A stretch of DNA of 64,000 nucleotides from Phoronis australis (GCA_002633005.1 NMRA01000123.1:402364-466363), one strand, 5' to 3'. Counted from the first letter of the stretch, positions 4,180-61,826 are shown. Notes: generated by a model from the sequence alone, not told the origin. Made by a program: numbers and translations.

Positions 4180-4299
4180 CTTTGCAGGTGTTGTTGTACT
4201 CTATCTTATTTCCAGGACATTCACACCGTCTTGATCTGCACGCCATCAAAGGGTCAGGGCACTTAAGACCAGACGCTTCACACGGGACCATTTCCGGCA
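4180..4299 (-). CDS. Internal exon, EB/EGF-like 6-Cys module (PEMVPCEASGLKCPDPLMACRSRRCECPGNKIEYNNTCK)
   Basis: Acceptor TGACCTTACAG|TG, donor AAAG|GTAGGT; 120 nt, phase 1-1, open frame, C..C..C..CxC..C spacing. Confidence 0.7.
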
Positions 4300-27150: not shown

Positions 27151-27766
27151 CTTCGATACCCCATTCAGGAAATGGAAAAAGATCTAAGTCAACTTCACAG
27201 CGTCGTTAATTCACTATGAACGTGCTAACTTGTTGAAACATGACGTTACCTTTGAGATGCATGCGCTTTCACGTAGTTAAAACTAGTTACATATTTGTCA
27301 GCATGAGTCTGCCTACTGTGGGAAGGACAAACCTATCCCATGGAAAGACGGACCCAAAACGGAAACGACGGACAATAACTCGGATGCATGGGTGTTGAAA
27401 GTACTGCCATTGTTGATTAATAATGTACATGTACACAATTAAACTTCGCAGGGTACCTTTCGAAGTCTCCATCTTTAGCACTACTATGACGTACAAACCG
27501 AGCCCATTTTTAGTAGCTGTGTATGACTAAACGTCAAGTTATAATCAGTAAACTGCCTTGAATCAAAGCAGGGGTATGAAGTCCTTACGTTGAAAGTTCA
27601 TGATTTAGTGTTATACACATAACGCTCGAATTGCACACCAAGTATCAGCCTGCACACGTCAACATTACGAACGTGTGAATACATTTATACCACAACATTA
27701 GCTTCAAATGGCAGATACAGCCGTGTAATAACCCATAAAGTTATCTCACTAGCAAGAAAACATTTT

Positions 27767-34400: not shown

Positions 34401-35987
34401 TTTTAATAAATCTTCGATTTGATGTCCACTCTGTAAAAATGCTCAACTATTAATCTTGTAGTCACTTTATGTGTTTCTTCGTTGCTAGAAAACAACAGAT
34501 ATCTTGGTCACTAAACCCTTAATCACATATCGGACTAAGAAGGAAAGTCAAGTAAAAGACCATGTAACATCGACTTACATGTAAGTGGGTGTTCTAGGGA
34601 CCAAATTAAGTTGAACAATATTGTTTATGTGATGGGATTCTCACCCACAAAATCATTTTATTTCAGTTTCAATTTTTAAACCTCGAATGACAAAAAAATT
34701 ATATCATTGATTCTGGGACTAATCTTTATACTAGAAATCGTTATTGTTCATGTTTTTGTTATAACTAAAAACCCTTCAAATCTGTTCTCAAGCATGCAAT
34801 GGTTTTCTTGGATGATTTTCAAAAAATTCTAGTTTGGACTTGATGATACTAACATAAAAGCTATGAGTTCTTACTTGTTATCTCGTGTTGTTTCAATATT
34901 GGTTGGTAGATACTGTACAGTTGTACTACACAACTGCACACGCATCTCCACTAACATGGTTCTTCAGCAAGATGGCGGACCACTCGAAAACCACGTGCCT
35001 TTAACACTAGTTATATTTATCTCATTGACCCAGCCACTATCACATTTTTGGGGTTTCAAAAGCAACACGTTAACCGAGTGTAAAATTCAATAATTGTTTT
35101 ATTGCATGATTGCATTTTCTAAGTAATTCAGGCAAGGAGGCTGGTTGGGCCTTTGATCGCTTGACGATTACTTTTTCAACTTGTGTTATTTATCCAAAAT
35201 ATTATAGAGAAAAAATGCTTCAGAATGGTCAAAGGAAAATTAATGATATTTTGTTAAAGATATCATATTTGAAGTCGTACAAAAAGGACAACCCTCACTT
35301 TGTACTATCAATGCGATTTTCAGCTGGGTATCGTCCATTTCCTTGACCTGGCCTCCCTATGCGCCAGTTCAGGAAGGATTCTTTAAAGTGAAGGGCAATC
35401 GCTGTTAGTGTCATTTTTATTTAAATACGATTTTCTGGATATCCTAGATAAAAGTTGAAGTTTAATTTAATTTCTGGTCTCTAATTAAAAATGCATGCGT
35501 CGCTTCGGAAGTGATGTTTGGGGCTCGAATCATACCCCGCTAGCTTTGTTTGTGCGACGATTGTGGACATCTGTTGCTCGTATACCATTTTCCAAAAAAG
35601 TGCCGTAATTTCTTGTCTTTGACAACTATTCAGTCATAGATTGAACTAGATTTCAGATCATTTGAAATTCTTCATTGTTTGATCTGGAATGGACGGGATA
35701 TGCCTGCGTAGGCCACCACCAAAGGAACACTAAAGTTATCATGTTATGAAAACTGAGCTGGTTACTGCATTTGGACGCTGCTGCCAGTGTTCATACACAC
35801 GTGGCATTGACTCCTTGTATAGTGGATGCAGCTCGCGACGCTATGCGTTTCAAACTCCTAGAAGGGGGGAGTCAAACTTCAAATTATACAGGATTTCTAC
35901 TTTCAGAAAATATATACTTTTACTGATTTAAAAATTAAAAACTATAGGTTTGTATATATTCGGTTAAATACATAGACTTGTCGTCAA

Positions 35988-36260
35988 GGTCCTGTTCGTT
36001 ATCTTAAATGGATAACAAGAATAACTGGTCCTGTTCGTTATCTTAAATGGATAACAAGAATAACTGGTCCTGTTCGTTATCTTAAATGGATAGCAAGAAT
36101 AACTGGTCCTGTTCGTTATCTTAAATGGATAACAAGAATAACTGGTCCTGTTCGTTATCTTAAATGGATAGCAAGAATAACTGGTCCTGTTCGTTATCTT
36201 ATATGGATAGCAAGAATAACTGGTCCTGTTCGTTATCTTAAATGGATAACAAGAATAACT
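35988..36260. repeat. 39-bp minisatellite x7 (GGTCCTGTTCGTTATCTTAAATGGATA[A/G]CAAGAATAACT)
   Basis: Seven head-to-tail near-identical units with no spacers. Confidence 0.95.
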
Positions 36261-36323
36261 GGTTTGATGTTTTGTTGAAGACAATTTTGGACCTTATGTG
36301 CACTATTTGTTTTGAAATGAAAG

Positions 36324-36704
36324 ATCTCTGCAAGGACAGAACGGAATGATTCAACCTTGGGATATCAATGCCCACCCGTGCACCAAACTACTTGTCTCGG
36401 GTGATCAACCGACACCTAACCAGAGCATCGCGGTTTCGACCTCAATGAAGAATGCGGGACCGAGTAGGGTTCGTATATTTAGAACAACATGTAGAAGTGG
36501 TGGAAAAAAGGAGCGTGGTCTCCGAAAGTCTCGAAGGACTTTGAATGGCTAAAGTTTGACCTGGGTCGGCTTGGAAATGTGACAGGGATTGTGACCAAAG
36601 GACATTCACAACAAATAGAGGCTTTTGTCAAGTCGTACATGGTACAGTACACAGACGCGAATGGACGGTGGCATATGATAGAAGACGACCTTTATAACAA
36701 TAAG
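36324..36704 (+). pseudogene. Frameshifted F5/8 type C (discoidin) domain exon
   Basis: CTKLLVSG..SIAVSTS..GPSRVRI, then in the -1 frame GAWSP..EWLKFDLG..VTGIVTKG..FVKSYMVQY..GRW..NNK|GTAAAT donor; frame break at an A6 run (36504-36509). Confidence 0.7.
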
Positions 36705-37579
36705 GTAAATATCGTTCTATTTGGATTCTCGAATTACTTAGTTATCTTGTTCCTCTGCACTGTTCATGAAACTACTTAAAACAAGGCGTATATTTTCCGT
36801 CTAACGCCCGCTCCGAATCGTATAAACATACATGTACGTGTACATGTACGTATCAAACGGTTAGGAAACGGAGAATGCTCCCCTTAGACGACACTGTAGC
36901 CTATGATTTTTTACTTAGGTTGTCGAGAATAGTGAACAAGTTACGGGAGCGGAAGCTAGCTGCGGGGGAATGGGCAGCGATCGGGACAGAATATGATGGG
37001 GATTGATATCGGGGAGGGAGATTGGGACGCGGAGTGGCGTTTTCATCAGGTGGCTACTGGATTAACTACATTTACGCGGGAAGAGTTGGGGGTGGGGTGT
37101 AGGTGCTTTACCTATGAAAAACTTTTCTTACTTCATTTACTCATAGCGATCCGTGCTGTATAACAAGAATCGAAGCTACAGTTTAAAATGGGCCTATGTT
37201 AAATTTTAATAGCATAAGCATTATGTACGGATTAAACCCCTACACAACGATCGTGCCAAGCCGTTAAGTATGGCGCGAAAGCAAATGGGTCCCATGAAAC
37301 GTGACAGGATGGGGTTTTAAAGTTTCATTTTGCCCAGTAGGACACAAACGGAAAAATACAAAGAAAACGGGAGTCCCCGTAAAACTAAGACAAAAGGGAC
37401 TACCATTGGCCGGGAGTTTCGAGCATGCACCCAACTCGAGTAGGGGCGACTATGAACCTCCTTAAGTTGGCTTCAGCTACATGTAGTGATGAATGATCAC
37501 AAGCAAAAGAATCAATGTTGTAAGAAAGTTTCCGTTGAAGTTTCCATTGTGGTTAGAACTTCCACTAAGAACTCAACAC

Positions 37580-40439: not shown

Positions 40440-42480
40440 CAATGCCTATCCAGTGTGGTAGAGTGCGTAAAATTGATGTAAACCAACTGTTTGAAATCAA
40501 TCAGACATCATGTACATAAACAATTATTTTGTGGGTCAAATTACCGGTAATTGGCAAAAATATTAAACAAAATTGTTGTCAGTAAGTACTCTACAATTTG
40601 TGAGTACTCCGGAAATACAGGCATTTGTAGTGAATACAAACATGTACCATAGATGAAAACATAAATGAAACCATCCCTTATTTACTAGCCACGTGAGCCA
40701 AGATATTGGTTTGGCGGCAAAATTCGTTTGAAAACAGTCGGTCTTCATAAAATTGGTAAAATATGCTTATGATAATCTAGTTTTGCCCAAACACGATGTA
40801 AATCTGTCATGGATGGGTGTTGACGGAAGTTAATTTTCAATATTGTCGGCAACCTTCCTGATACTATGTGTTGTTGTTGTAAGAAGTTATTAACTTCTTA
40901 AGCGCGTCGATGCCCTTGTACGACAAATATCTGAAGCTGGGATTAAAATTGGACAGGGAAATGAACCGCGCTCACTCGAGGAAAGTTTACGGTATGGTTA
41001 AAATTTAATAATCTTTCAGAAAAGCAGTTTTCAGATCAGCCTCAGCGTATCACCAAACATTCAACTTCTGCACTCGCAGCCTAGCAGTCTTTCTTATTGA
41101 GTTAAAAGCCATTTGATAAATGACCTTTTACGAGTGTTTAACCACAAAGTAACGTGTTTTAGTGTTTTGTAGGTCCTATCCAAACTGATAACATCCTGAA
41201 GTCTGTTCTGTGTAACTAAAATCTCAAAATGCATTTTCGGCAGTTTAAACAGAGCTCAGTGCTGCCGGGAACGAACGCGCCAACTTCAGAATTAGTGAAT
41301 TTGTTTGCATGTACATGTGCATCGATACAGTTATGGACAACCATCTTCCAGCTTTTACATATACAATGTAGTTCTGTAGGGCGCTTTGGCTTCTTGGGTT
41401 GATCTAGCTAAATTTTGGTAGCCCATCATTTTTATCAAACAGGGACACTTCATTTTACGGAAATTGTCTGGCATATAACTGCTGCACCGCTTGGAGTGAT
41501 GCTGGTGTTATACAGTTGGTTTAAACCGGTCACCTGGAGGGTTGGGGTAGCTCAAATCGGAGATTTGTATGGGTCTGAATACCATAACCCATCCCTGAGT
41601 TTGTCTGGCAATGTTCATTCATGTTAAATTGATCTGTGATGAATAATTTGTAACCAGTTGCATGGACCTCTTGGGTTGATCTAGGTCAAATTTTGGCCTC
41701 AGCTATAATCGTTTGGGTAAAGTTCCCATCAATGGAATTGTCTGGTAGTGGAAAATTTTGATACAGTGAATTTAGGTGTAGATGTTGCAGGTGACTTCAA
41801 GTAGTTATCGGAAAAGTTGATTTAGCTCAATTTTGAGTGCTAATCTCATGTCCCCTTGATCACACCCACGAGAGCGAACCACAGCCAGATGACCAATTCC
41901 TAGCATTACGATGCCCGTGCATCACTGTGGTATCAATTATGTTTGGTTAACTTTTCATCCCCAAAATAGCCCTGGGATCCTGGTCTATTCTTGGATGTTT
42001 ACTCTTCTTCAATTCGCTACAGGAACATCGGGAAATGTTTAATTCGATAACCTCCACTCGATTAGTATTGTCATTTGCCGTAGTGAGAGGGGGGAGTACG
42101 TGTACTATTTCTTGGATACCCCGTGCAATTTTTTATTACAGCGGATTTACAAAGCGACGAGAACGTGAATTTTCACGCATATATAATTCCGCGTCATGCA
42201 TGTCATTCTTGATTGTGGCGTAAGCCCCATAGTGTTTGCGTGTTTTACGGGAATAGAAGAGGTTCACGTTGCTTAAAACGCGAAACCTGTGGCCCACTTT
42301 TTATTGTTATTTGGCAAGACCTCGAAACGATTTTCATTCGATAAGGTTCTCAATCTATTTTCTTTGCTTCAGTATATAATAACACGGTTGTTTTGTCTAT
42401 ATGTTCCTCAAGTCCAGCTGGAGGAATGCCTTCTTTTACAAAATCCGTAAGCTTTATAAGATAAGGTGATTTGAGCATTT
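40440..42480 (-). mobile_element. Degraded CR1-like LINE relic
   Basis: Decayed motifs in ORF2 order: LCLNCR/DVISL, EVECLVI (endonuclease); KPISWLTWLVNKGWF, TNCRVLT..LPITG..HKIIVY (early RT). Confidence 0.3.
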
Positions 42481-43439
42481 TTCGCGGGAGTTCGTAGAAA
42501 CGACTTTTTCAAATTCACCGTACATTTCAATCATGCGTATCTGTAACAGAATGGAATACAATAAAATACAATATAATACAATTAAACGAAACATGTTTCA
42601 TTCAAGATGTGTAAAACGTACTTGTATTCATTGTCCATCAACTTCTCAAAGAATAACACGATGTAGAGTTGAAAATACGAGAGCAAGAGATAACACTGGA
42701 ACAGGAATACTTTGAAACTGAGAGAAAGAAAGGGAAGCGAGGCTTGAAATGGAGAAGAAAAAAGATAGGGGAGCCTAGCTGTAGATACAGCATGTTAAAT
42801 TTCATTCCAAAACTAACTTAAAGTTGACCAACTTGAATTGACTGACCTGTGTTAGATGATAATAGAATGAAAATAAAAGAAGTTGCATTCGCAGGGTGAN
42901 TCTTTGCTTCAGTATATAATAACACGGTTGTTTTGTCTATATGTTCCTCAAGTCCAGCTGGAGGAATGCCTTCTTTTACAAAATCCGTAAGCTTTATAAG
43001 ATAAGGTGATTTGAGCATTTTTCGCTGGAGTTCGTAGAAACGACTTTTTCAAATTCACCGTACATTTCAATCATGCGTATCAGTAACAGAATGGAATACA
43101 ATAAGATACAATACAATACAATTAAACGAAACATGTTTCATTCAAGATGTGTAAAACGTACGTGTATTCATTGTCCATCAACTTCTCAAAGAATAACACG
43201 ATGTAGAGTTGAAAATACGAGAGCAAGAGATAACACTGGAACAGGAATACTTTGAAACTGAGAGAAAGAAAGGGAAGCGAGGCTTGAAATGGAGAAGAAA
43301 AAAGATAGGGGAGCCTAGCTGTAGATACAGCATGTTAAATTTCATTCCAAAACTAACTTAAAGTTGACCAACTTGAATTGACTGACCTGTGTTAGATGAT
43401 AATAGAATGAAAATAAAAGAAGTTGCATTCGCAGGGTGA
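42361..43439. repeat. 539-bp tandem duplication across a single N (probable assembly artefact)
   Basis: 42361-42899 equals 42901-43439 apart from a few substitutions; N at 42900. Confidence 0.9.
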
Positions 43440-44471: not shown

Positions 44472-47205
44472 CTGGTGTAGATAAGCAATCCTAATTCCGA
44501 GATTGTCACGTGTACCACCGAACTAAGCTCACGACCCATTCGACAGGTTTTGCGTGGTCTTGTTTTTTAGCTAGTTTTTCAGATTTGCGGAATGCGCCCC
44601 TGTTCAAGAAATGGATTTGGCAAGTGTTCAACCGAAGTACTTTGCTTAGTTTTCAGAGAATTGTATAATGATTGACTCAAAGTCGGTGGAGTTCAGAATA
44701 TCGCTTTCAACACTTACAATTGAAGGAGATTTTAAACGGTGCAATTCTTTTACATATTTTAAATGAGCCACGTATAGGTATCGGGCTCACTTCTTGGTAT
44801 ATACATAGGTCGCATTTTTACTTTGAACAAGTCTGTATATCGCCCCAGATTCGGAAGACCCAGCTACTCCCTTAGACTTCTACATGTACATGTAAAATAC
44901 ACCCCTCAATTCCGGGACTGTCTCAATGTGTTCTCCAACCACAGTTGGTCACTATCAGATGGTCGCGGTTTCTCTCAAAACTTCGAACTTACTTCTGACA
45001 TACAACTTTGGTTGATATTCGTAACGATTTCTCCTAAATTGCTACGGTTCACAATGGTAGCCTGCCCGGTGGTTTACAGGTGAATGGTGACGAGAATGAT
45101 GCTACGGTTTGTCTACGATATTCATAGCCAAAGGTAGAGCTACAATGACTCAAGGTAGTTTGAAACAGTAACGTTGCACGATTTACCTAGGATGGAGCAC
45201 GTTTTTCACTGGTTTCGCTACGGACTTGACCAGTTGATCCCCGTTTCCATTACCTTAGTTCATCTCAGTATACAACGCGATATTTTTAACGGGTAGTATA
45301 ACATTTTTCTTTTCACATAGTAATAACAGTACTCAGCTTCATCTAAATTCACACTTGCCAATAGCAGTGTAGCCTGCCAGCTAGTAGCATGTAGACTATC
45401 GTCAAAATACAGCTACACTGTAGGTACCACTGTGTGTTTTTCTTCCTTAGACCCCGAAATGACACACAGTCAGGGTAGTTCCGTTCGTCACCCCGCCGTG
45501 AAACATGTATCTACATGTAGAGCTAAAGACCGGACGGGGTGCATGCAAAATATGGGAATCAAATGACACTCCCCTTACCCGTTACAGCCGTCTAAGTGCA
45601 AAGCAATCTAATAAACGTTATTTTCTTGCGTAATCCTACGCATTTTCTAACAAAAAAGACATGTCGTCGTTTCGAAAATGGCAATTTGATTTTAAATTTC
45701 TAAAAACCTGTAATTAAATGGAACCAGTCCCGATAATTTGTTGTGTCATCTACGCAAGAACAGTTGAATGAAGAATCGGTGAAAAAAGAAACTGACCAAT
45801 AGGTGGCACAATATTTCATGGCGCCAAAAGCCGTCGCTAAAGATCGCTCCACAATTTTAGCAGCAGAATAACGGTAGGACGCCATTTTCCCTACACCATT
45901 AAACAATTGTGTTTACTCAAGGAAGAGTGTAGTTTTTTACGACACTAATTTTGAGTCAAATTTTATCTTATCACTTTTTTACCCACATCGACCCAAAGCT
46001 GTATAATTTACCATACAGCTTTGGGCCAAGGCTAATAGCAATGTCGCCCATTAACGAACTTGAACCTATTCGGCGAAACCCCAGTAGGAAAGACAGAGTC
46101 TAAAATGCAGTAGAAGGGTGAAGGAGAAATATAGAAGGCGAAGCTACCAATGTGAACAAAGGACTATGAATAAAATACGTGAAATGGGGAAAGACGCAGT
46201 TGGAGTGTGAAAGACGGATCATGTTTTCATTTTGAGACCTTAGATCACGTTACTGAATATCATTGTTGGTTCGCGAATCAGACAGTAAAAATACCCAATT
46301 TGCTGCTACATTGTATTTCCCGGTTGCATGTAATAGTCCCAAATAGGGACTCAACTAAGTTTTCTAAGTCTAATGTATATTTGTGGACTTTTGAAAGCGC
46401 CGATTGTCCTTTCTCGTATTGTTTTAGTTGACGATAACATGTCGAGATTTGGCTTTGAAACAAGTCGAGAGTGAACTTTAAGTTGAGTTCGCAATACTAT
46501 CGACAATAAACAAGAAATGTTTTGGGCATCTTCCCTAATTTAAGTACTAAGCCCTTCAGAATGAAATAAATACGCAGTAGACTAAGGGAACTTATTTGAC
46601 TTCCTGTTTGGTACTGCTTCGTGCAAAAGGGCACATGGTACTAAAATACTCGACAGCATAAAAACTAGAAAATCAAATTTCATGATAAACAATATTCATC
46701 TCCTGAATCTGATTTTCTGGACCCATATTTACACAGTTGCTAGCGATCTCTTTTAAAAAGCTAACAGACACTGGAGGCTTTAGAGGTGTGCAGTTAGGTG
46801 ACTTTCACAATCCCGTACTGTCTATGTAGATTTCGCTCTTCGCATATGTGGGTCTATACGTCCCAACAGCATTTCGAGATTGACATTGGGTGGTTAAGAG
46901 TGACTAAAATCAGCGACCAATAATGGCAAAGTAGTCGACCTAAAGTATTATTCTACCATAAGTGCACAACAACATGTACACCGAATTACAAACTCTGTTC
47001 AAAATTATAACTCAATTTCAAAAATACATGTACGTATACGAACACCAACATGGAGCCTGCGTTCCGAAAATGTCATTCACACAGGACAAAACTGGACATG
47101 GCAACCGTCAGTAAACAATCACTTTAACTACATGGACATCTCAACACTACTGTCAATCCATTCTCGGCAAAACGGAAATCTAAATATTTTGAAAGGTCAA
47201 CGTAA

Positions 47206-50200
47206 TCATGGCGATTTTCGACTTCCTGCTGGAGTGACAAGTCGGCGGGACGGACTAGGCGAAGACTGCGGGGAAAGAGAACGAGGAGTTGTAGATGCTT
47301 GTGCCCTCTGTCTTTCGGCTTCAGCTAAGATGTGCCTTTGGCGCAGTCCCACGGCTGCCTTGGGCTTAATTTCACAGAACTGTAAACACTGCTCGCACAT
47401 ACCCAACGTCCAATCGTAGAAGATTGCGGCACCGTGACTTGTAGTGAAGATCTCGTGCCGTGTGTGACGCTTGATTACTTCTAGGCCCCTCGCAGCAATT
47501 TCTGGGTTCAGGTGCTTGAAGTCGTACTCTTTAATACGTTTTAAGAGGCCATCGTACTCGTGAGATCGAATAGTAGCGCACCTTTTCTGACAGGTTTGCC
47601 AGTCACGTGTCTCAGATTCTGGATCACCGAGAATCAACAGCGTAGCTACCATGACCTCATGAACGTTTTCTGGCGGATGAGCGTAATCGCGAATTTCGGA
47701 CATTTTCGATCTGTCCAGTTTAAAGATAGCTTCTTTTAACCGGTCAATCGTATCCAAACCATCGCAAAGTATCCTCGCCTTAGCTAGTTCCTTAAATATT
47801 GCCGTGTCCACCCCAAGTTTGTCGATAATACGCAGAAGTTTCTTCAGCTGTTTCCCATCTTTGGCTTCAATGGCTTCGTGAAGTTTTTCTCGATCTTCTA
47901 TAGCTAACATCATGTTATTTGCGTCGTTCAACAAGTTTCTGTCAATACACAGTGACGGTTTGTGCTTACTAATGAATTTTTCATAATCTGCAATGGCCTG
48001 ATTGATCAGATCTTCGTCCATTGCAGCGACCGCTTTCGCCAGAGCTTCTTTCAGAGAATTGTGTTCTTGAACCTCTTCTTTCTTCATCTTCTGCATTTCT
48101 ATCAGCGTGTTACGCGCTTGCTTAACAAGATCGTGATCGATGTCGAATTGGAGGACATAGATATGGCCAAATTCTTCGTACTTCGTCAACGCGTCCTGAA
48201 TAGCAACGCAATCAAATTCGTCCAAAACTTCTTGCAGCTTGTGTTTCAACTCCTCATTCATTTCATTAATTGAGTCATATGATTTCCTTAAATCTTTTAA
48301 ACGTTCACGCGTCCTGTGAATCAGCCCTTCATCTGGCTGTATTCGCATTTTATACCCCTCAATGAATGATTCGTACTCTGCAAGAACGGATTTAACCTCT
48401 GCATACTTATGAGATTCTTGTACTCCAACGAGCTTTCGTTTGAGGTCTTCATGCTCGGCGGCAATTCTTTCCTCTGTACGTTCCATTTCAGCGTACATTT
48501 TATAGTATCCCTCTATCTGACCTTCGTCTACAGATACACGGCCGTTGTTACGTTTTTTAAATTCTTCAATTTTCAGTAAACCTTCTCTCAAACGAACTTT
48601 ATTTTGAGTGGACGCTGCTTGACTAAGCTCGCATAGCACAAGCAGTAGCTCTTTCTCTAACCCCCTTTTTATAGCATTTGGATCATTCAAAAGACGATTT
48701 GCTTGAGATAACAAGTTTTTGTCAACACTCACCGACTTGTCTTTATCCTTAGCCAAATCACTATACGCTGCCAAGGCATTTCGGATCAGGTTTTCATCCA
48801 TTGACTCTACGGCACTCACCAATGCCTTTTTGAGATCACCGGCTTCGATGTTGCTTACTAGCGTGTTCTCCACTTGTCCAATAAGCTTCTCGTTAGCTAC
48901 AATTTCGTTCTGATGGCGATTTGCAAATTCTTTGTACTTAGACAGAGCGTCCTGAATCTTTTGCAAGTCTTTTCCACCTAGAGCCTTCTTTAGAGCCTTC
49001 TCCAGGTCGTCCAGTTCATTCTTTGCTTTCTTAGCATCTCCTTTGCAGGAGGCAAGAAAATTTTTTGCCTGCGACAGTAATTCAGCGTCGGGTGTAATTA
49101 GATGGCGTTCGTCCTTGACCATTTGATCATAACCGGACACGATTTCTTGAACTTCGAGGAAATGGCAAGACGACAAAGCAGATTTTAACTGCTCTTTCAG
49201 AAGTTGGTGCCTACTCTCGACAGTGTTCATGGCATCAGTTCTTTCATGTATGCACCTTTCTGCCATTTTCAAAAGCTTTTCGTCAGCCTTGAGCACATCT
49301 TTGTGCGTTTCAATGAAATCTCTATATTTTCCCAGAGCGTTTTCGATGGCACCAAGATTTTTCGAACCCAAGACATGCTTTAACTCTTGAGTTAAACGCT
49401 CGAAATCTTTATTAAGTTTCTTTTCATCTTGTTGTCCATGCTTAACTGCATCTCTCGCTTCTTTGATCAAGGACATGTCGGACTGCACAAGATCACAAAT
49501 GTCTTTATTTGCTTTACTTAAGTCGTCTATGACAACCAATGACTCCTTCACCTGTGCCAAACTGTGTGTAGAAAGAGCCGAAGATAATTGTAGCCTGGCA
49601 GCTTCATATTTCGGAGTAACCTCTTTCAAAATGTCTTTTTTCTCTTTCACAGTTTTGTCAGCTTCTTTCAGTAACTCGTCCCTTTCAGAAACAATGTCGC
49701 GATGTCGCTTTGCGAACTCGTTGTATTTATCCAAGGCACTCTCGATAGCAGATAACTTCCCGTTGGCAATAGCGTGCTTCAAATTCTGTGCTAAATGATC
49801 CAGCTCTTTGTGGAGGTTCTTGTTTTCTAGATCTGGGTTTTTCAAAAAATCCTTGCCTCGCTTAACAAGTTCAACACACGGTTCAATCATGCTCAAATTT
49901 TCTTTGACGAATTGTTCATAATTACGCAGCGCAACTTGCACCGCTTCAGAATCATGTTCATTTAGGGCACGCTCCAGTTGGTCCTTTAACTGGTCATGCT
50001 TCGGCCCAAGAATTTGCATCTGCATCTCTTTCTCCCTCACCATCATTTCCGCCTTCTCCAAAAGCGGTTGATTGATGCCGATTTCATTTTTGTAATGATC
50101 GCCAAATTCTCTGTACTTTTCAATGGCCTTTCGGATTGCCGCGACATCGCCTGTTTTCATGGCGTTCTCTATGTTATTTTGAAGACGTTCTATTTCCTTC

Positions 50201-51713
50201 ACATGTTTCCTGAATATGCCACTTTGCTGGTTTATTAATGTTCTTGCTGCACTGATCAACTTGTTATCCGGATCTATGAACCCGTCATATTCCTTTAAAA
50301 ACTTTTCGTAATTATGTAGGAGTGCTTGAACTTCAGATATATTGTTTGAAACAACAACCCGTTGAAGCTCTGATCTAAAATTCTCATCCTCGACCTGTTT
50401 GTCTTTAAGCTTGGACCGTATAATATCTTCCGCTGTGCTAAACAAGACGTTATCCACCTGAAAGTCCTCACCGAACTCCGCTGCAACGGTCTTATATTTT
50501 TCTAAGGCAGCATCTATCTGGTTCAAGTCGCCAGTTGCTATTGCCTTTTCAAGTTCTCTTCTCCTGTCCTCAAGCTGGGCTGCGTGCTTTCTGTAACTGC
50601 TACCATTTGTCAGGAGAAATGTATTGGCTGCTTTAATTAAGTCGTGATTGGGCTTAACCAATCCCCTGTTTTCTTTCAGAAAGTTGTTGTATTTGTGTAA
50701 AGCATCATGCACCGAAGATACAATTTTTGCATCAAGAGCCTTTTTGAGATTTTCCTGAAGTAGGGCTTCTAAAGGCTTCAAAGACAAACCTTTTGATTTC
50801 AATTCATCTAAAGAACATTCACACTCCCTGATGAAATCTTCATCTGAACTTAGGACATCGGGGTACTCAGCTACAAATTCTTTCAACTTTTTCAAAGCAA
50901 TTTCTGACCCAGATATGTCTCTACCTTTAAGTGCCTTCATTAAAGTCCTCTTTAATTCGCCACGTTTTTTTATTACTTTGCCGTATCCTGGACCAATTTG
51001 GTCAAGTGCATCGCACGCTTTCTTTATTATGTTCTGATCTGGCGACACAATGCCTCTGTGATCACATAAGAAGCATTCGTATTCATAGATCGCCGCATCT
51101 ATTTTTTTCGGGTCACGTGAATCTATGGCCTGTCTGAGCTTGTCCTTCAGTTGCACCTCTGTTTCTTTCACGTTGACCTGTTCCTTTTTTATATCGACTA
51201 AACGCGCTTCCGCCTCTTTTATCAAATCCTGATCATTACACAACTTACTCATGTCTGGGTGGAGTTTCGAAAACTCCTTTAGACGAGCCAACGCCTTTTC
51301 AATTGCAGAAACGTCATTGGCATCCATGGCTCGCTGCAAAAGCTTCTTGATCTCAATTTGCTCGCAAAACAACTTTTCGTTACCAATCCCCGTTGACAAC
51401 AGCACTTCCATGGCCTCTTTGACCAGCGCCTTGTCGGGATCTACAAAGTCGTGATGCTCTTTAACAAATATCTCGTAATCACATAGTGCAGACTGAATTG
51501 CGGCAGCGTCGCCTGATTCAATAGCATCTTCAAGGTTTATTATCAAGATGTCAAGCTCCTCTTCCAGCCCTGCCAACAGAGGATATGACGCCCTCAGCTT
51601 ACGACGCCTTCGCACATAAAAGAAGACCGCAGCGCAAAGAATGACCACCATGGCAATAACTATAATGGCTGGCCACAGTCTTCCATACTCGGTGGTAACC
51701 TTTTTCTTGGCGG
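47206..51713 (-). CDS. Terminal exon: TM helix + ~20 helical ~65-aa repeats + dynein MTBD-like domain + S/T-P-rich tail
   Basis: 4.5-kb open frame; acceptor CTAATCACATATCCTTTGTTTTTCCAG|CC (branch point + pyrimidine tract, phase 1); TM WPAIIVIAMVVILCAAVFFYV (51613-51675) followed by RRRRK; stop at 47206-47208. Confidence 0.93.
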
Positions 51714-52319
51714 CTGGAAAAACAAAGGATATGTGATTAGACCACAACGAAGAAATGTGACGGTATTTCAGCGTATTCCACGGGCAGAGCGTAGCAAAAA
51801 CTTAGTGAAGATATTGCTGACCCAGCACCACGATTTTCAATGCTCTTATGTACTTTATGTACAGTCGCCTGATCAAATTGTTTTATTGCAGTTTTAGAAA
51901 TGGCTGTATCCCTACACCTTTGCGATAAGGTGGCAATACCTTGATTGCTACGGGCAAGAAACAACGTAAATAGCTCATAAACTGGATTCAATTTATTATC
52001 AGCATGTATTGCCCAGAGTATTCATTCATCCCTATCAAATTGCGTTTTTCCCAGTTCGTTTCACTCGCAGAGGACACCAAGGTTTTCATGATATTTTACA
52101 ATATACTCAAGTCAATGATATTTCCGGACTTCTGGTGTCCAATGCTTTCGAAAAAGCTTATGATTTCTAGATTTATTAAGGAAATTCTACATTATTTCAG
52201 TTTTGATGACGATAGTATTCGTTGGTTCACAATATTCAATGCTGATCAAGTTTGAGTCTAATACTAAAATTAAAACTTACAAAAATTAGCGACGTTGCGT
52301 CCGCATATCACGGACTTAA

Positions 52320-54015
52320 ATGAGAATGCCACCCGATTTAATTAGTCTTTTTTGCCGTCTTAATCGGTCTATATCCACATCGCCTCGCATACGGTCGACC
52401 TAACTTTGCCAAGAGGTGTCACGTTAACCTGTGAGGAAGGTGAGAAACGACGCTAGCGACGTCAGTGGTTCATATGCAGAGTGAATGCCGCTATGTTGCG
52501 CTGCATCGTTCCAATTGCCCGAACTAAGCAGCTGCGAGGAAAGCGGGTATATCGTTTTTTTTACTTCCTAGAGAGTCCGAAATGCTTAGGAAGTAGCTCA
52601 TGGTAGTGAAGAATGAAATATATGTTGTAAATAGCAAGTATGAGGCCGTGAAACATCTCCGTGTCTGTGGCCTGCAGACGTCGTCGGACAGTGCCTGACG
52701 AATGCCGGCTTACCAAATAACTCCAACATTCCATTGTCTGAGCTTGTTCCTCGCGCCTCTCTAGTATTTCTTCATCACTGTATTCCTGTTCGAATTGATA
52801 GCCTGTAAAACTTAACGATCCACCAGCAAAGTCGGGACTGAAGATGTCTAGCTCGTCCTAAGTCGGGATTGCGAGTTGCCATGTTGGCGTTTATTACTGA
52901 GCGTTCTGTTTCAAAATGAATTATTCTCACCCTAACCAATATTTTTATAAAACTAAAACAAAGTCTGTCTCATTAGATGCGTTTTGTAATGCCTTTGGAG
53001 TGGTCGTGAGTGCAAATAATTTGAGAAGACAGTAATGAATAAATCACCGCGTTACCGGCTTTAGGTGCAATAAAACTAATTGACGGGACACCTAGGCCGT
53101 ACGTTTGAGCTCATGCTAATTTAGTGTTTATTGGCAGAAACTGTTGTGAAACAACTCGATTTCCATCCCACGGCCAGGTGTTAGAGGAATCTTGATTTAC
53201 ATTTACATTACCCAAATAATGATTGTCAATGTACAACTTCTGCCCTGACGGTGCTGTGGCCAAAGCGGAACCTGAATTCGCGGCCCCCGACGAGTAAGTA
53301 GATTTGCAGTTTCGTGGCTAATTCACCAACATAATCACGTGCACATCACTTTGGCTCACTAGTATAGTATTTTCTTGACTGGAAGTTTAGTTTACACAGA
53401 ACTTTGGCTGGTTTATGTTCGTGATATCTCAGTTTCCGAGCCACTGGCCGGGATCACGCCGAGTCCAATCCGGCCGGCCGCCGCGCGGGCCTGATCGAGC
53501 TCCGAGCCACTGGCCAGGATAACAAGCGTTCTGTGTTTAGAACAAACAAAATCACAAGTCTAAACAACACAGATCTAGGTTCTCCTGCCTGTGTGTATCT
53601 CACGGAAAATACTTCGAAATTATCTCCCTACAGACCCCAAACGCCTGCCACGGGACCTTATTGGCCTGCCGAACTTCAGTTTGTAGGCTACGGTGTGTCC
53701 AAATACCAATAAATCCGTGAGACCGAAATAAACAACACGTTTTTATAAGAACTCGGTGTATTTTTAAGGGTTTTACATCGAAGTTTGATGATTTATTGGT
53801 GTTAAACGATGACTTCAAGCGATAAGCTGACACCAGTAACCCGTGTTGTGAACTGCTGAACAAACTGCGTGTGAAACCGATGACGTCATTGGATAATTTC
53901 AACACCTCCGTCTGCCGTCAGATGTCAGGTAACGCAACCGTGCGTGTCGTTATGGAGTAGAACTACTCGATCTAAACTGATACAAATTAGGTTGTTTTTT
54001 GGGTGGCGTGCTCCT
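52320..54015 (+). mobile_element. Non-autonomous Kolobok element, copy 3 (within the predicted last intron)
   Basis: TTAA TSDs 52316-52319 and 54016-54019; colinear with 19051-20760. Confidence 0.88.
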
Positions 54016-57000
54016 TTAAGCTTGGCTTGTGACGTTATCGTTATTCTGGCCAATTGGTTGCGTTTTGGCTAAACGGCGCGGCACTGACGTCAGTACACCA
54101 TCCCATACGTGTGAAAAATCGAATCGTAAACTGCCTCTTTTATTTAAAGAGGGACTCTCAGTGCGCTCATGGAGAGCTTCCTTTACACCCCTTTTGAACC
54201 AGTCCTCCTCACAGTCTAAGATACTAACATCATCGTATTGAAATCATGTCTAGTAGCGCACATGTGTGCCCCCGTAACTAGGACGACGATGTTGTGACAT
54301 ATGCATTGTAAAGGTGGCAAGCTACCTTTTCTTGACTGTTAAGTCTCCATTAAACAGGACAGATAATTTGACACAAAGGTTTACCGCAAGAATACTCCCA
54401 CTGACCACTATCTTCAATTTGTCTCGAACCATCCTCTCATCCACCAGCTGGTGTAATTTGCACTTTGAACCACGCAACGTCGCTAATTTTTGTAAGTTTT
54501 AATTCCAGTATTAGACTCAAACTTGATCTGTTTTCTCAACTGGATGTCTCAAAATTTCCATGCTTTCAATATCCAATGCTAGTGTCGAACACTCGGCTAC
54601 CCCTACTCAATCTGAATACCTCAGTATAATCTTTTAAATATTTCATCTTCGATTTGTGTACGTTTACTCAAGAAATAAAAGCAAAATGATTAAAAATAAA
54701 TAACATTTCTGTGACGTTATCATTGGATCCGGTCTCCGTCTTGGAGTCGTTCTACACCATCTGCGAGCCGTAGTGGTCTCGAAAACTAAGTTGGCCTGAG
54801 TATTTCGAAAGGTTGCATATGCAGTTATAGCTGTCGGACAGACAATACTTCAGTCTTTGCATGCATGGTTGATGTCCGTGCATCGGACACGGGTATGGCA
54901 GTACACGATCAGTTAAGGGGTAACGCTGTGCGCAGCTCATTTTTGTAGAATCGTGTTTCGACCCGTTGCAGAAACGGATATTTTATGAAGGTTGTTCAAA
55001 CGTGTAAGTGCATTTGATGGAGAGAAAGTGTACTGTGTTGTACCATTACTGCAAACGTACACCTGTAGTTGTCAGGCGTTTATTAAATTTGAGCCTCAGC
55101 ATCATATTGTGTTTTGACTGAGATAATGACTATGACTTCAGTACGTTTCCATCAGTCTCTTTCTGCTCAAGATTTAATGGGAATGCATGCTATACACAAA
55201 TGCGTCAATATTTAAGGGTAGAAAACTGGAAACAGATGCCACGCTAATAACAGGAGATCACAAACGCAGCCGGAAATAATCAACGAATCACAACCTTCAT
55301 CATTTTGGAACGGACGAGACATAAACGAGTAGTATTTTCCAGAAATATAGTCCACTTAACATTACAGCGATTAGATGGCATTTGAAGAAACGATTTCAGT
55401 GTCCGCTATTCGCGACTGGGCTTGGACGGTCCATGCGCGCGGGGAGTTCGAAGTAGCCCCTCCATTTGGCGAAGTTGACAAAAAGGTCCGCCTCAGAGAA
55501 ACAAAAAGTCCGAGAAAACGAGACAATAGCCAGGAATTCAGCGAATGCGCAATTTACAGCTCTGAACGTACGACGTTGTTTTAGTATTTTGCTCGACAGT
55601 GAATAGGTTAGTGTGAATGAACAAAGGAATGCCCGCAGACTGAGTAGGCTCCGACTCGGATTCACTTGCCGAAGACGCCGATGAAGGAGGGTCGAGTTCC
55701 TATGGCCACAAACACGAAAAATCTGCCGATACGGCGAAGACTGTTTCATTACCTGTTTCACCTATAACCTCAGTGTCGTTTTCACCCCACGTCAACATAT
55801 GTGTTCGAAATACTCATCAAGCTCGCTCTCTGCGCATTAGTAAGTTACAAAATCACTGTTAGCCGTCATTGCATACATACTGTCAATTGATAAACGTCTT
55901 CCACTGATGACATCACGTGACAGGAAACAAAAAACGTTAGTTTTCTTTAAAATTCAAAATTCCTCACATATTGTTTGGTTAGGTCTTGATTTGTAAAATT
56001 AGTGTAGATGTTCGAATACCACAAAAAGTGCAAAAAGCCATTGTAGGAGGTTACAAACCCCTGTCACCTTATCTTTTCGTTGCGAGCCAAAATTATGGCA
56101 TCTACGCTGAGGAAATGCAAGAGCTTTAAAGGCATAAAAAGGCTTTTCGGAGAACAAATTAATACTATATACAGACGGCACGGTCCTCTTTCTAGATGGT
56201 TCAGTGACTCATCACTGGACCTTCTCGACCAATTTGGTGAGTATTTTGGTTTGACACCCAATACAGTGTATGGAATTATTCCAGAATATCTTGTCTTTAT
56301 CAACTTTGTTGTGAAAAAAATATTTAAAATGGGCAAGTTTCCTGTTCACATCCCTTAGAATTGCATTTTCTGTCACCTTATAATACATGATTCATTTAAA
56401 TTGCAAAGCAAAATTGAACGACGTTAGAAATGATATTATAGATTTGTCAAAAAGAAATTCATCACATTTGGTAAGATAAAAACTGTCAATTTTTAATTTC
56501 CAAAACTCACCGAACTCTTAGCGCACTTCCTCATTCAGGTGATACTTTTTTAAAATACACTGAATAAATATTGTTAATTACGTATGAGGTGCCTCTATTG
56601 ATAAAGTCTCTAGAAAGACCATGGTAAACAAATAAATACTCTATGTGAAAGTATTCCTAGTGTTGAAAAACATTTTTAATGGGGGCTTTGTTTTTCATGG
56701 ATAATTTTATGTTTTAAACAAATTTACCAATCGGACCCTTTGTACAGAGTGCTGTGGCATAACCCTGTAGTTTGTATTAGACAGTATTAGATTGTTTGAA
56801 AGGTATACTACACGTATATACAACTGTATACGACTTAATTGACCCTGATAAAGGCTACATTGATGACTATTATACCTTTGGTACACAATGTCAACTTTAC
56901 CCTTGTGTTATCAATTTCCAGGTATATCGAAGGTCATTACTTCATTTTTAGAAGTGTCTTAGAGACACGAGTACCATAATTATTCAATTTTTTCTGAACA

Positions 57001-58685
57001 TATTTTTGAATCCTGGGAAAATAAAGTGACGGGGAATATTTGTTAGTTATTCATGATCTTACGTACATGTATCAAACCTGTCGCCGAATTGAAGTGGGAA
57101 AGAAACCGTAACATGGTTGGTGAAACTGAGCCTTAAATATCATTTACCATTGTACTTTTGATATCAAACTCAGATGGTTTCAATTCCGTATCAAACAGCA
57201 GTGGTGGATCACAAGGGGGGGGGGGGCAAATTTTTGGTGTGTAAACATTTGAGCTATGCACGATTGTAGATGCACCGAATGGGGGGAGGTCGGGAGGGGG
57301 GTTTTTCCCCGTCCGCCAGGAAAATGTTTCTGTTTTTTGCTCTAAAAATCAAGCATTTTCCTTGATTTCTGAGGTGTTATCCAAGAAAAAAAGGCAAAAA
57401 AACGTGTCAAACTTGAAAATGCGCATTTACCACAGACTCGAACTCCCGACCAGGCCGATAAAGAGAGCGCACGCGCTTTAAAACTGCACCACCACGATTT
57501 CACTAGTACTTTGATTCTAAGAGACCTACTTTTTTATGGTCCACAGCGTTTGCGCACGAAACCTTCTTTTTGTAATGCTTATTATACTTTTTATATTTTA
57601 TGCAATCAGTTCGTAACGAATTTGTTGTATTTAAAATATTCTTCAATTGCCCAAAAGACCAAATCCGTTTTTTGCGTTGGAATTAATGAAGCGATTGCTT
57701 TGGAAATCGTCTCAAGTTAAGGTTTGACAAAAAGATAATTATGAGTTTCTGAGTGATTCACTAAGGCTTCGANGTTCACTTCTTTGGGATTTTTGAAGTT
57801 GTTTAAAAACATGAATGACAAATCAGTGAGAGGTCCCTCTGCATTTAATATGTCTACAGCCTCGTTTGGAGATCCAGCTTGTGGATTGGAAGTTGTAAAT
57901 GTAATTCTTTGCTTTGCGGAATTTCATTTCTTTAGGCAAAGCTTGCAAAACGCTAAGCCCAAAATTCAGCATTTTTAAGGGAGATGTTAAACAACTAAAC
58001 TGTTAATGGGGAAAACATTCATGTAAGTTTGGTACATGACCAGTTTGTTTGTATCGACGGAGGTTGATGTATCAGAAAGTGTGCCGTAGAAATTTACAGA
58101 CCAAATCAACGAAAGGCCTCCATTTGTGGAAAACTTTTAAGACTAGTAGGACTTCAAATGGTGCTTGTCGCTTTTGTGGAATCACTCCATTCCCAAAATC
58201 GCAATTGTGTAAGTTCTACCGATCTAAATAAAATCGTCGACTCTTACATTTATATGCTATTACGGGGACGTCGTTATAAGAAGTCAGAATGAAGACCAAC
58301 AGTAATACCTTACACTAAACCGCTTTAAAACGTTCCACGGGTACCAGACATGTTTTTTCAGCGCGCGACAGGGTTATGCTGTAGCAGATAGCGCCCTCCA
58401 CTGCAGAACACATGTAGCAGTTTAATCCAGAATAATTTCATTTACTGCAGAAAACGATTGATTAGAAGCATGTAATTTATTCATACAATACCACAAAATG
58501 TTGAACTGCACAGTATCTACTAACAAACATGATGACCCTGGCTTCGATCTAATTCACCAAAAGACTGACCGAGGCGCTCCAGTGTAGACAAAAATCTTAC
58601 GTTTTTTTCACGACCTAATCTTAGCACGGCTTTTGTCTGCAACCGAACGAGGTTGTCAAGTTACGGAAACCAAAAAGCACCTCAC

Positions 58686-58901
58686 CAGGAAGTCTAATTT
58701 TTTCGAAGATCACACAGCAGCCATCGGGTACCGTGTCAAAGGTGCGACCCGTTTCAACCACCTGGCATTCGTCTTTTCCCCACTGAGAGATTAAACAGTC
58801 TGTCATAATTTGGCACAGTTGAGCACACTCCTCCGCACTTTTGGCGTCCACTTTTTCAAGATAGTTTGAACGCACTCGCCGTCTTTCCTGTTGTAACACA
58901 C
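58686..58901 (-). CDS. PAN/Apple-like module exon 4
   Basis: CTGACATTTTAG|GT .. CCTG|GTGAG; 216 nt, phase 1-1; ECAQLCQIMTDCLISQWGKDEC..DGCCVIFEK. Confidence 0.85.
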
Positions 58902-59537
58902 CTAAAATGTCAGTAAAGTATAATAATGACTTAATCGAACCACGAATTTCAAAAAGAAACGCATACACAATTACATCATTCAAAGTGGTTTTCAGGAACT
59001 AAATCGAAAATAAAACGAACAGTTCGGCAGGTATTTTTACAGGTCGTTTTTAAAATTTTGAATTTCTTTTAACGTCAAAGCATTTTTCTTTTGGTTTCAA
59101 ATGGAACAAAACTATCTGTTAACTTCTCATCAATTTTAGTTCCCGATCTTTGCTCCCACAAAGCAAAGAATGTCTACGTATTTGGTATGGCAAGACACGT
59201 TTCTATTTTCTGGAAAGTGTCACCTTTTGACAAGGCATTCGTGCGACACCTGGGGAAAGAAATTTTCGAAAATAAAACGGAATCGGTAAATGTTTACCGA
59301 CAATTCAACATTAGAACTTACCTGACCAAACACTAGTGGTCATGATTTTGCTATACGGTGGTACGGTTTTGGTACTACATGCACGTGTAGTTATCAAGTT
59401 ATCCACTCGCATTTTTGCATGAAAAAATTCTCCGACAGAGATGCGACTAGAATTCTAAGTGCAACTCTCCCAGATACATCCTCCCGCTTGTTGGAAGCCG
59501 ACCGAAACCTTGACACGAAAATTGTAAACGACTTCAC

Positions 59538-59765
59538 CTGGTACTACATTCACGTCGCTTTCGAAGGTAGTGCAACAAGAATCAGCTTTCATTGTATACG
59601 TGCCACCTTCGCCCACAGCGACACATTCCTTCGTTTGGCGATTGTACTGCGCCGCTATGCAACCAACCTCGGCACATTTGCTGGCGCAATCTGGACCACT
59701 TGAGCTCAGGTGCGTCTCCGTGTTTGTCGCCGAGTCAAAGGCTGAATTGTCATACGCTTTCATCC
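59538..59765 (-). CDS. PAN/Apple-like module exon 3
   Basis: TTTTACTCAACAG|GG .. CCAG|GTGAAG; 228 nt, phase 1-1; DCASKCAEVGCIAAQYNRQTKEC..DSCCTTFE. Confidence 0.85.
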
Positions 59766-60195
59766 CTGTTGAGTAAAACCATGAAAAGCCCCAAGTATAA
59801 ACTTGAACAAAGGGTGGGTTCTAAATGACACTTAAATGTCGCCCCGAAAACAGACTAACATTTTGTAAACAAAAGGTCTATTTAGTCGATCAGTATGTAC
59901 AGCTGTAACTATTGATCATGTGACACGAATTTAGAAAATGAAAAAAGACACGTCGTCCTGTATATAGTTGCAAAATTTCTGAATGCCATTTTATTTTGCA
60001 TGAAATAAAAATGGTCAGAATCACAAATTGATAGGACTCCGAAAGTACAAGTACGCCAAGTTCCGTGACCCGTGACGCCACTGAAACGATCTTTTGTTTC
60101 GTTAAATTTCATGATGATGTTAAAAAATATTCGGGGAATGGAAAAATTGTATGCATTAGACGACCTGTCTTATATCAATACATAAAAATGCAAAC

Positions 60196-60420
60196 CGATC
60201 CGCTCCTTTTCCTCTTTTTCGTAGAGTTCGCAACATTCGTCATTTCTCACGGCGTAGTCTCCACCTGGATCAACCACCACACAGTCCAATGTCATCAAAT
60301 TCCAATGGGCGGCGGGGCACAAAGAGCGAACGCAAAGTTCTCCGCACTCGTTCCCGGTGTCCGTCACATGCGTTCTCGTGTGCTCTGAACTAAGGGCTTG
60401 TCCGGGTCGCCTGAACATAT
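60196..60420 (-). CDS. PAN/Apple-like module exon 2
   Basis: GAATTAG|AT .. ATCG|GTTTG; 225 nt, phase 1-1; ECGELCVRSLCPAAHWNLMTLDC..DECCELYEK. Confidence 0.82.
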
Positions 60421-61601
60421 CTAATTCAACGTGAAACGTTGTTTTAGAAGATACATGTTACCGTACAGTTTTATACCAAGAATTAGACAGATGCTCAATC
60501 AAATACTGGAACGCCATTTGTCGGCTAAATCTGCAGCTCGCCCTGTTTAGGTTGCTAAATGAAAACCAGTCTCGTGATATTCTTTACCGTGAGTGCATTC
60601 GATTTTTGTCTCATGCAATCTCGCATTTTTCTCATGACAATCATGAAAGTCTCGTTTTGATAGCCTCTCATGCAAATCTGGAACAACATGAAAGCAGTTT
60701 CTAATACTGCTTTGGAGAACACGGAACAAGGCATAGTGTCTGAAAGCTTCATTGGAATCTGATCAGTCATTTCTGAGATATGGGCATTGCCTATGGTCCT
60801 CCACAACTATAATTACGGTAATTATTCCTACGGCTACCACGTAATCCTCACATTACGTTCTCCACTGCCAGTGTTCGACTGCCTGTGCTCATCAGCAGGG
60901 GATGACGACATCTAAAACCACAAGGTAACTGTGGCGTAGGGAGGGTTTTAGCACCTTAGGGCAGCAGTTCCCGGCTAAAATACGCCGCTGAATGGATGTC
61001 ATGCAAACTACAGGAGGCACTTTTTTGAAACTATTGGATGCAAACAAACTACAATGAAATTTCAAAACAGGGGGGATGCAACATTGTGCGTAGAAGACCC
61101 TGTTCGTTCTTCTCTCTCCCCATCACCGTCAGCTGTTCACGCTTTGGTTCGTGGATTTCGAACGAAAAAATTGCTATTGACATAAACCTAGTGTGTCCCT
61201 GTCGGGGTCATTATAGGGATAGCAAACCTGGCTTTGGCTATAAACAGATACTAAAAACGTCTTTCCATTCCATGTCTCTGAAGCAAAACAATGTCCTCGA
61301 CAAACCCCAAAACTTAGGTAGAAATTTTAAAAACTCCTTTCAAAATATGTTAAGTGGATTATGCTCTTAGCGAATAACACGATAACAGAGGGAAAATGAC
61401 ACCCAACAAGGATCACTACGCCCAATTTTTGAGATAGGGTACATTAGGTCTTAGTTGACTTTACCCTTTATCTTTCAAGATTTTTATCAAGGATGCATTA
61501 GCAGGGGACAGATTGGTTGAACTCACCTAAACAGGTTCAGTATGTTTTTTAGCGGCAGCTGACTCAGGGATTGGGGGCACTTAGCACTTATCAATACTGA
61601 C

Positions 61602-61826
61602 CTGTGAACGGCTGTTCCTGCTTCCTACCGACAACACAACAGTCGCTTTTTACTAAGTTGAAGTTATCGCCTTCGCCAACCATCAGACATTCTTTTGTCT
61701 CCGGGTTCCACTGGGCCACCGCACAGTCGCTTCTGGAGCATTGTGACAAACAGGCGTGCGACGTTGGGGTCGTAGTCCTCGTTCCCTCGGTTGTTTCAAT
61801 GGCTTGGTTTGGTAACTTGTCCATAC
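61602..61826 (-). CDS. PAN/Apple-like module exon 1 (first seen in window)
   Basis: TTTTTACTTCTTAG|GT .. ACAG|GTCAGT; 225 nt, phase 1-1; ACLSQCSRSDCAVAQWNPETKEC..SDCCVVGRK. Confidence 0.85.

Follow-up and report, generated by a model that had tools for sequence, protein, structure and literature searches.

Can the microtubule-binding domain (MTBD) of dynein, which is usually treated as existing only at the end of the motor's stalk, also form the end of a membrane protein? This question is raised by a locus on the minus strand of a 64,000-nt stretch of Phoronis australis DNA (the window; intron-rich eukaryotic DNA of about 41% GC). A first-pass annotation had read the locus as an ectodomain receptor linked through a long helical rod to a motor-free, dynein-like MTBD. 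This reading is borne out in part by our analysis. The locus is an expressed, spliced single gene, in which PAN exons are combined with a predicted membrane helix, a rod of helical repeats and a homologue of the dynein MTBD without a motor. The homology and the predicted fold of the last domain agree with the annotation, while the residues that contact tubulin in dynein are only partly kept. The gene is neither a dynein nor a one-off; it belongs to a large family that is apparently undescribed, and within this family its architecture is a new variant.

An expressed gene of PAN exons and a long terminal exon

The exons of the gene were located at 61826-61602, 60420-60196, 59765-59538, 58901-58686 and 51713-47206 on the minus strand, and all four introns between them have GT-AG ends. 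The small exons are 225, 225, 228 and 216 nt long; each length is a multiple of three, and each exon is of phase 1. Joining the five exons by their coordinates yields a frame of 1,799 codons without internal stops, which reads IRLP and then AAKKKV across the 58686/51713 junction. The in-frame union of four PAN-like exons with the terminal exon, as the first-pass annotation had it, was thus recovered.

Raw stranded RNA reads carrying the same species label (runs X1, X2 and X3 of one study) were mapped to the region. The junction counts were taken from a second mapping, in which the repeat-rich intron was excluded, and refer to junctions among the joints listed; short reads show such joints singly, and minor splice forms inside the terminal exon are possible. 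The joint 61602/60420 was found in 18 reads of X1 and 13 reads of X2, the joint 60196/59765 in 13 and 16 reads (over two listed rows) and the joint 59538/58901 in 2 and 6 reads, respectively. The predicted connection 58686/51713, which crosses the repeat-rich intron of 7 kb between the fourth PAN-like exon and the terminal exon, is likewise present in the RNA: at 58686, 7 reads of X1 and 5 of X2 have loose ends, and these are identical to the 30 bases with which the terminal exon begins. The terminal exon itself is covered in 7 of 7 bins from 47104 to 51660, at a read depth of 13.7-37.2 in X1 and 14.7-27.4 in X2. For all of its reads in these two runs the first mate lies on the plus strand, which in most stranded libraries denotes minus-strand RNA. 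In run X3 the depth is 0 in the same seven bins, though the intron repeats are covered. Since the gene is read in X1 and X2 but not in X3, its expression is likely to be tissue- or stage-specific.

All four small exons encode six cysteines, and three of them pass the curated cut-off of the PAN_1 family (PF00024) in the Pfam scan. These are exon 1 in the window (61602..61826, phase 1-1; E 7.4e-6, 26.2 bits), exon 3 (59538..59765; E 8e-5, 22.9 bits) and exon 4 (58686..58901; E 5.2e-6, 26.6 bits). Exon 2 (60196..60420) matches at E 0.0099 with 16.1 bits, under the cut-off of 21.4; both of its junctions, like those of exon 3, are present in the reads. One further exon lies upstream of 61826, outside the window, as indicated by 17 (X1) and 22 (X2) loose read ends at 61828, the sequence of which has no match anywhere within the 64-kb window. 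This exon is likely to encode a fifth PAN domain, because the reading of the loose ends terminates like the other PAN exons. A comparison of the reads with the window over the four PAN exons (58686-61826; 894 bases) revealed 20 differing sites, 12 of which alter the amino acid, and a five-site haplotype was observed among the differences in exon 2. These differences may be ordinary allelic variation.

The terminal coding exon (47206..51713) holds an open frame of 1,501 codons plus stop. Near its start a single transmembrane helix is predicted (51610..51675; hydropathy 3.1 over 19 residues in a simple hydropathy scan), which is followed by RRRRK. One hydrophobic segment with a basic stop-transfer patch is the arrangement of a type I single-pass protein. 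The C-terminus is likely to be cytoplasmic, because RRRRK follows the predicted helix, as expected from the positive-inside rule. The next part of the product is a rod (47833..51555; residues 53-1293 of the terminal-exon product), in which a self-built repeat hidden Markov model (HMM) delimits 19 helical repeats in tandem, each about 65 aa long. The mean pairwise identity of the repeats is 23%, and one of them is degenerate. Pfam assigned the rod to TPR_Slam (E 4e-18); this assignment was rejected, as a bacterial TPR model here sums six weak helical stretches. A word-index protein search with the rod, which is a weak method, found no relative among 7,992 candidates. The rod is followed by the MTBD homologue (about 47377..47727; residues ~1329-1445), at the place where the annotation had put the last folded block. 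The protein ends in a basic tail of 56 aa (47209..47376) with 11 K/R, 3 D/E and six SP/TP sites. The tail is likely to be disordered; the part of it included in the structural model described below has low confidence.

The intron upstream of the terminal exon carries a 1.7-kb dispersed repeat (52312-54019), of which copies 82-93% alike are found near 19064-20762 and, inverted, near 23852-24725. It is heavily read on both strands; some reads bypass it, and in some its end is connected to its start. The repeat resembles a non-autonomous transposon, and no Pfam match was obtained for its short frame.

Homology and predicted fold of the last domain

Judged by motif and profile, the last domain of the protein is a homologue of the dynein MTBD. 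It has the order and spacing of the MTBD motif that were recognised in the first-pass annotation, including the PP turn and the two tryptophans, as in the middle part of the Pfam family MT (PF12777) and in the structures 3ERR, 5AYH, 6RZB, 6KIO and 6L4P. The core motif residues are kept across the 81 rows of an alignment of its relatives. The MT family itself matches the domain at E 4e-5 over profile positions 95-234 of 344. The score of 23.2 bits lies under the curated cut-off of 24; the Pfam model spans the whole stalk, and only the head is present here. The expected match to MT was thus obtained by E value and narrowly missed by the curated score. A search of the single sequence against the PDB returned dynein heavy chains with a best E of 1e-5, the best matches being dyneins of axonemal type. 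A family profile was built from 81 non-dynein rows, together with a tighter version of 30 rows. The top PDB match of both profiles is the MTBD of yeast cytoplasmic dynein (E 3.1e-13 and 3.9e-15, respectively). With the 30-row profile, all 60 rows shown fall in dynein-size chains or in dynein MTBD constructs.

The domain is predicted to adopt the six-helix fold of the dynein stalk head. A single-sequence AlphaFold model was unusable (predicted local distance difference test, pLDDT, 41.3) and was replaced by a model from the 81-row alignment, which contains no dynein rows. The latter (AF2) reached a pLDDT of 91.9 and a predicted template-modelling score (pTM) of 0.86. Dynein chains rank first for this model in Foldseek, with four matches at E≤0.001, and 6RZB aligns at a root-mean-square deviation (rmsd) of 2.9 over 147 columns. 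In a comparison with 48,161 chains by VIA, the five best matches are dynein stalk heads (Z 11.8-17.8); the scores include 17.8 for 5AYH, 17.7 for 3ERR, 15.3 for 8I3J and 14.3 for 6L4P. The match to 6RZB has a Z of 14.0 and an rmsd of 2.4 over 136 residues. For the MTBD structures named above the Z values fall between 13 and 18, and 6KIO, 6L4P and 6RZB give an rmsd of 2.3-2.4 over 124-136 residues. Dynein stalk clusters are matched, with a template-modelling score (TM) of 0.65, by the Atlas model of P0003, the nearest short relative, as well. Modelling and structure search, which the first-pass annotation had named as a check of its reading, therefore both point to the stalk head.

Unlike a dynein heavy chain, the protein is without AAA ring, linker and long antiparallel stalk. 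No Walker A pattern occurs among the 1,501 residues that the terminal exon encodes, no AAA family was found in the Pfam scan of the five in-window exons at E≤10, and the frame stops 56 aa past the domain; the earlier statement that ring and P-loop are absent holds. The long coiled coil CC1/CC2 of the stalk was not found either. In the model, the incoming helix belongs to the last rod repeat, a hairpin, and a single helix leaves the head and ends after about 20 residues. Also unlike the MTBD of dynein, the head sits behind a predicted membrane helix.

A motor-free family of MTBD-like domains

Relatives of the last domain were searched for among 1.84 billion representative proteins. The search returned 403 representatives at E≤0.001, of which 85 reach E≤1e-10; the best E is 1e-36. 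Most of them are unannotated invertebrate proteins, so that the similar C-termini suspected by the first-pass annotation in other invertebrates do exist. A word-index search with the domain, again a weak method, had found none among 323 candidates; in view of the 403 representatives found later, this blank reflects the limit of its sensitivity. Among the 150 matches listed, all 70 proteins of at least 400 aa were scanned with Pfam at E≤0.001 and E≤0.0001. At these thresholds none of the 70 contains a dynein motor domain, and none contains a PAN domain, although a divergent PAN could be missed. KY Ig-like domains are present in 40 of the 70, often with a transglutaminase-like core. The other long relatives have CLCA/VWA, LRR, CARD or CD20-like parts. 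The domain lies at or near the C-terminus in most relatives. Thirty matches were traced to their records, which come from molluscs, annelids, the brachiopod Lingula, the sea cucumber Apostichopus, the tunicate Styela, the amphioxus Branchiostoma and the ctenophore Pleurobrachia, along with one protist transcript and unnamed records. Two of the 150 listed proteins, P0006 (YDG repeats) and P0085 (Tudor), proved to be spurious repeat-sum matches and were not counted as family members. The protist protein P0096, in which four MT stretches are present, was retained as a distant relative.

The KY/hillarin-like proteins KAK3098481.1 and XP_033763426.1, the Ridgeia protein KAK2168167.1 and the Apostichopus protein PIK57548.1 resemble the Phoronis gene in that short helical repeats run into an MTBD-like head at or near the C-terminus. 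The identity to these motor-free relatives in the alignment is 20-36%. Unlike the Phoronis gene, most long members of the family have transglutaminase-like and KY Ig-like domains and no membrane helix, and the 19-repeat rod was not detected in family members by a weak search. The rod-repeat HMM matches 25 of the 150 relatives at E≤0.01, and no shuffled or reversed sequence. These matches identify the rod as an expanded array of the short helical repeats found ahead of the MTBD-like domain in relatives. Neither a transglutaminase-like core nor a KY Ig-like domain was found by Pfam in the five in-window exons, which sets the gene apart from the KY/hillarin/LTD-1 proteins; the N-terminal part encoded outside the window would lie across the membrane helix from the head. 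Relatives of the KY/hillarin/LTD-1 type that end in an MTBD-like domain include P0002, P0010, P0016 and P0018, and some of these relatives have a CARD-like domain.

A hydrophobic segment before the domain was found in 14 of the 121 full-domain proteins, the Phoronis protein and 13 others. The membrane-type relatives comprise CLCA-like and CD20-like proteins of amphioxus, and also a Pleurobrachia protein, the ectodomain of which is Cys-rich, with the group that surrounds it. Like the Phoronis protein, the Branchiostoma CLCA-like proteins XP_035689228.1 and XP_078700756.1, the CD20-like protein XP_066272931.1 and the Pleurobrachia protein EP00116 P002106 consist of an ectodomain or membrane segment, a charged helical region with repeats, and the head. 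They differ from it in having CLCA/VWA, Cys-rich or tetraspan ectodomains and much shorter cytoplasmic parts. In two Branchiostoma CLCA-like proteins, P0051 and P0077, a membrane helix and a cytoplasmic MTBD-like end were observed. Vertebrate CLCA proteins are not known to share this arrangement. A quick tree of low resolution (129 columns, many open forks) groups the domain of the Phoronis gene loosely with annelid and unnamed proteins, apart from the other membrane forms. Repeated independent fusion of the domain to membrane segments is likely, because the membrane label needs seven changes on this tree, at least four of them forced by starred branches.

The PAN part has its own set of counterparts. 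As in PAN/apple type I membrane proteins, tandem six-cysteine PAN_1 domains on symmetric phase-1 exons precede the membrane helix. Such proteins usually have a short tail, a ZP domain or a kinase, unlike the cytoplasmic part of about 1,465 aa with repeats and MTBD-like head in the Phoronis protein. An alignment-based word search returned 8 of 7,996 candidates, none of them with PAN. Of the combination of PAN, membrane helix and MTBD that was read in the first-pass annotation, the layout of membrane helix and MTBD is not unique, and only the PAN ectodomain with the 19-repeat rod was not found elsewhere. In the accessible literature, which comprises few subscription papers, no description was found of an animal family of motor-free dynein MTBDs or of a PAN-membrane-MTBD protein. 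An 'MTBD-like' motif named for TTLL11 is unrelated, since in the accessible part of that source (PMC12366701) the term refers to TTLL6/7 and not to dynein.

Three chains of solved structures have an MTBD-like bundle and no motor. Two belong to the Chlamydomonas radial spoke, 7JTK_C (Z 11.9, rmsd 4.6 over 149 aligned residues), which we take to be RSP2, and 7JRJ_I (Z 8.0, rmsd 1.6 over 74). The third, with a similar fold, is the Toxoplasma chain 9YA2_L of intraconoidal microtubule 1 (162 modelled residues; Z 9.9, rmsd 3.3 over 125), which from its size and numbering is probably ICMAP2. All three differ from the family described here in that their identity is 5-19%, they are not among the profile-search rows shown, and they are not membrane proteins. 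Chains 9YA2_L and 7JTK_C may be solved examples of motor-free dynein stalk-head folds. In the paper on 9YA2, the domain is reported to bind between protofilaments; it is described without the term 'MTBD' and not as dynein-like.

Proposed role at the membrane and its alternatives

We propose that the protein is a static tether, by which a partner outside the cell is linked to microtubules beneath the membrane. This is the best single model, and we give it an even chance of being correct. The PAN array would bind a protein or glycan outside the cell, and the 19 repeats would act as a spacer of fixed length. The head would dock on the microtubule lattice via the conserved Glu and Arg of helix 1. 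As it is connected to neither a sliding stalk nor an ATPase ring, its affinity would not cycle, and the protein would hold on or slide but not step. The basic tail, rich in SP/TP sites, could add affinity for the acidic tails of tubulin as a possible second site, which phosphorylation could switch off. The presence of the domain behind a membrane helix in several branches of the family is expected of a cytoskeletal anchor. The similar fold of 9YA2_L, a chain of a microtubule structure, also speaks for the tether.

The residues through which dynein docks were compared with those of the head. According to the accessible part of PMC4298687, E3390 in helix 1 of dynein pairs with R403 of alpha-tubulin, and R3469 and K3472 in helix 6 bind E416 of alpha-tubulin; the accessible part of PMC6629372 gives helices 1, 3 and 6 as the dynein-microtubule interface. 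Using the numbering of 3J6P chain D (3382-3489) and its profile alignment, the equivalents of the three residues were mapped to E1339, T1423 and H1426. The Glu of helix 1 is kept, and this position is acidic in 80 of 80 relatives. The residue two positions after it is Arg in the Phoronis protein and K/R in 68 of 80 relatives. A basic patch after helix 3, G-K/R-x-x-L-x-R-R, is also conserved in the family.

Several observations weigh against the tether. The basic pair of helix 6 is replaced by T1423 and H1426; each of the two positions is K/R in only 10 of 80 relatives, and that of R3469 is D/E in 35 of 80. The position one residue before R3469 is K/R in 43 of 80 relatives and Phe in the Phoronis protein. 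The Lys-Lys pair of helix 1 is Asp-Arg here, so that one of the two lysines is not kept. The net charge of the domain is -1, with a family median of +2 (range -8 to +12). The same fold binds proteins elsewhere, as in 6L4P, where the MTBD of the gamma heavy chain is bound to light chain 1, and it is shared by the radial-spoke chain 7JTK_C. The similarity to the microtubule-bound 9YA2_L amounts to 5% identity at a middling Z, and the domain of that chain is reported to sit between protofilaments. The 40 long relatives with KY Ig-like domains are proteins of KY/hillarin type, a family whose known associations are with muscle, septin and cytokinesis structures and not with microtubules. Finally, the N-terminus of the protein, with any signal peptide, lies outside the window. 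As far as can be judged from the aligned residues, strong constraint has preserved one half of the canonical interface but not the other. Because the basic pair of helix 6 is lost, microtubule binding is probably weaker or differently posed than that of dynein.

The main rival to the tether accounts for these observations by repurposing. The MTBD-like head would have lost microtubule binding and would instead bind a protein, such as a dynein light-chain-like, septin or actin-linked partner or another one at the cortex; the protein as a whole would still be a membrane-to-cortex adaptor or receptor. The loss of the helix-6 pair, here and mostly also in the family, the negative charge of the domain, the protein-binding surface in 6L4P, the fold of 7JTK_C and the many relatives of KY/hillarin type all favour this explanation. 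However, the helix-1 Glu, a tubulin contact in dynein, is conserved better than any other surface residue in the family, and both the basic residue two positions after it and the patch after helix 3 are conserved. We regard repurposing as a serious explanation, if a rather doubtful one.

A ciliary site would be a special case of the tether. The protein could connect axonemal doublets to the ciliary membrane, or it could connect neighbouring cilia or sperm structures via homophilic PAN contacts. The axonemal-type dyneins among the best single-sequence matches, the expression in two runs and its absence in the third of the same study, and the origin of the named relatives from heavily ciliated marine invertebrates, including the membrane-anchored ctenophore protein, are consistent with such a site. 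The family profile, in contrast, scores best with yeast cytoplasmic dynein, and the ctenophore interciliary protein CTENO189 has another layout, with metalloprotease and death domains, in the accessible part of its description (10.1101/2022.03.27.486007). We consider the ciliary case unlikely.

A decayed piece of a dynein gene, or an artefact in which the PAN exons belong to another gene, could be argued from the sub-threshold MT score and from short reads that show joints singly and not a full-length molecule, but it is very improbable and already largely refuted by the 1,799-codon open frame, the four junctions in stranded reads, including the 7-kb one, the core motif kept in 81 rows, and relatives without motor domain that are far closer than dynein (E down to 1e-36).

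Other features were observed elsewhere in the window. At 26185-27183 on the minus strand lies a single open frame of 332 aa, the product of which has a hydrophobic stretch in its N-terminal part and also contains a VWA domain (Pfam E 1.7e-7). An isolated exon with an F5/8 type C (discoidin) domain (E 1.7e-11) lies at 36495-36779 on the plus strand, and another with a weak EB module (E 0.003) at 4157-4489 on the minus strand. From their domain matches, these two exons are assigned to neighbouring genes for extracellular proteins. The window further contains a 39-bp tandem array at 35949-36302 and a tandem duplication at 42361-43200 with a spacing of 540 bp, 98% alike over 300 nt.

In its widest form, the tether model would mean that invertebrates have a large undescribed family of non-motor anchors derived from the dynein stalk head and repeatedly fused to surface proteins. 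The Phoronis gene would then be a PAN adhesion receptor that ties its ligand directly to microtubules via a 19-repeat spacer, with no motor or adaptor between them. We put this forward tentatively, at less than even probability. A membrane protein with a lone MTBD would connect the outside of the cell directly with microtubules, a connection for which chains of adaptors are normally used. Its head, which has no registry control and has lost one of two key salt bridges, would be a natural experiment on the affinity states of dynein. The family as a whole would provide a first functional clue for the C-termini of unannotated invertebrate proteins that number in the hundreds, with KY/hillarin-like and CLCA-like proteins among them.

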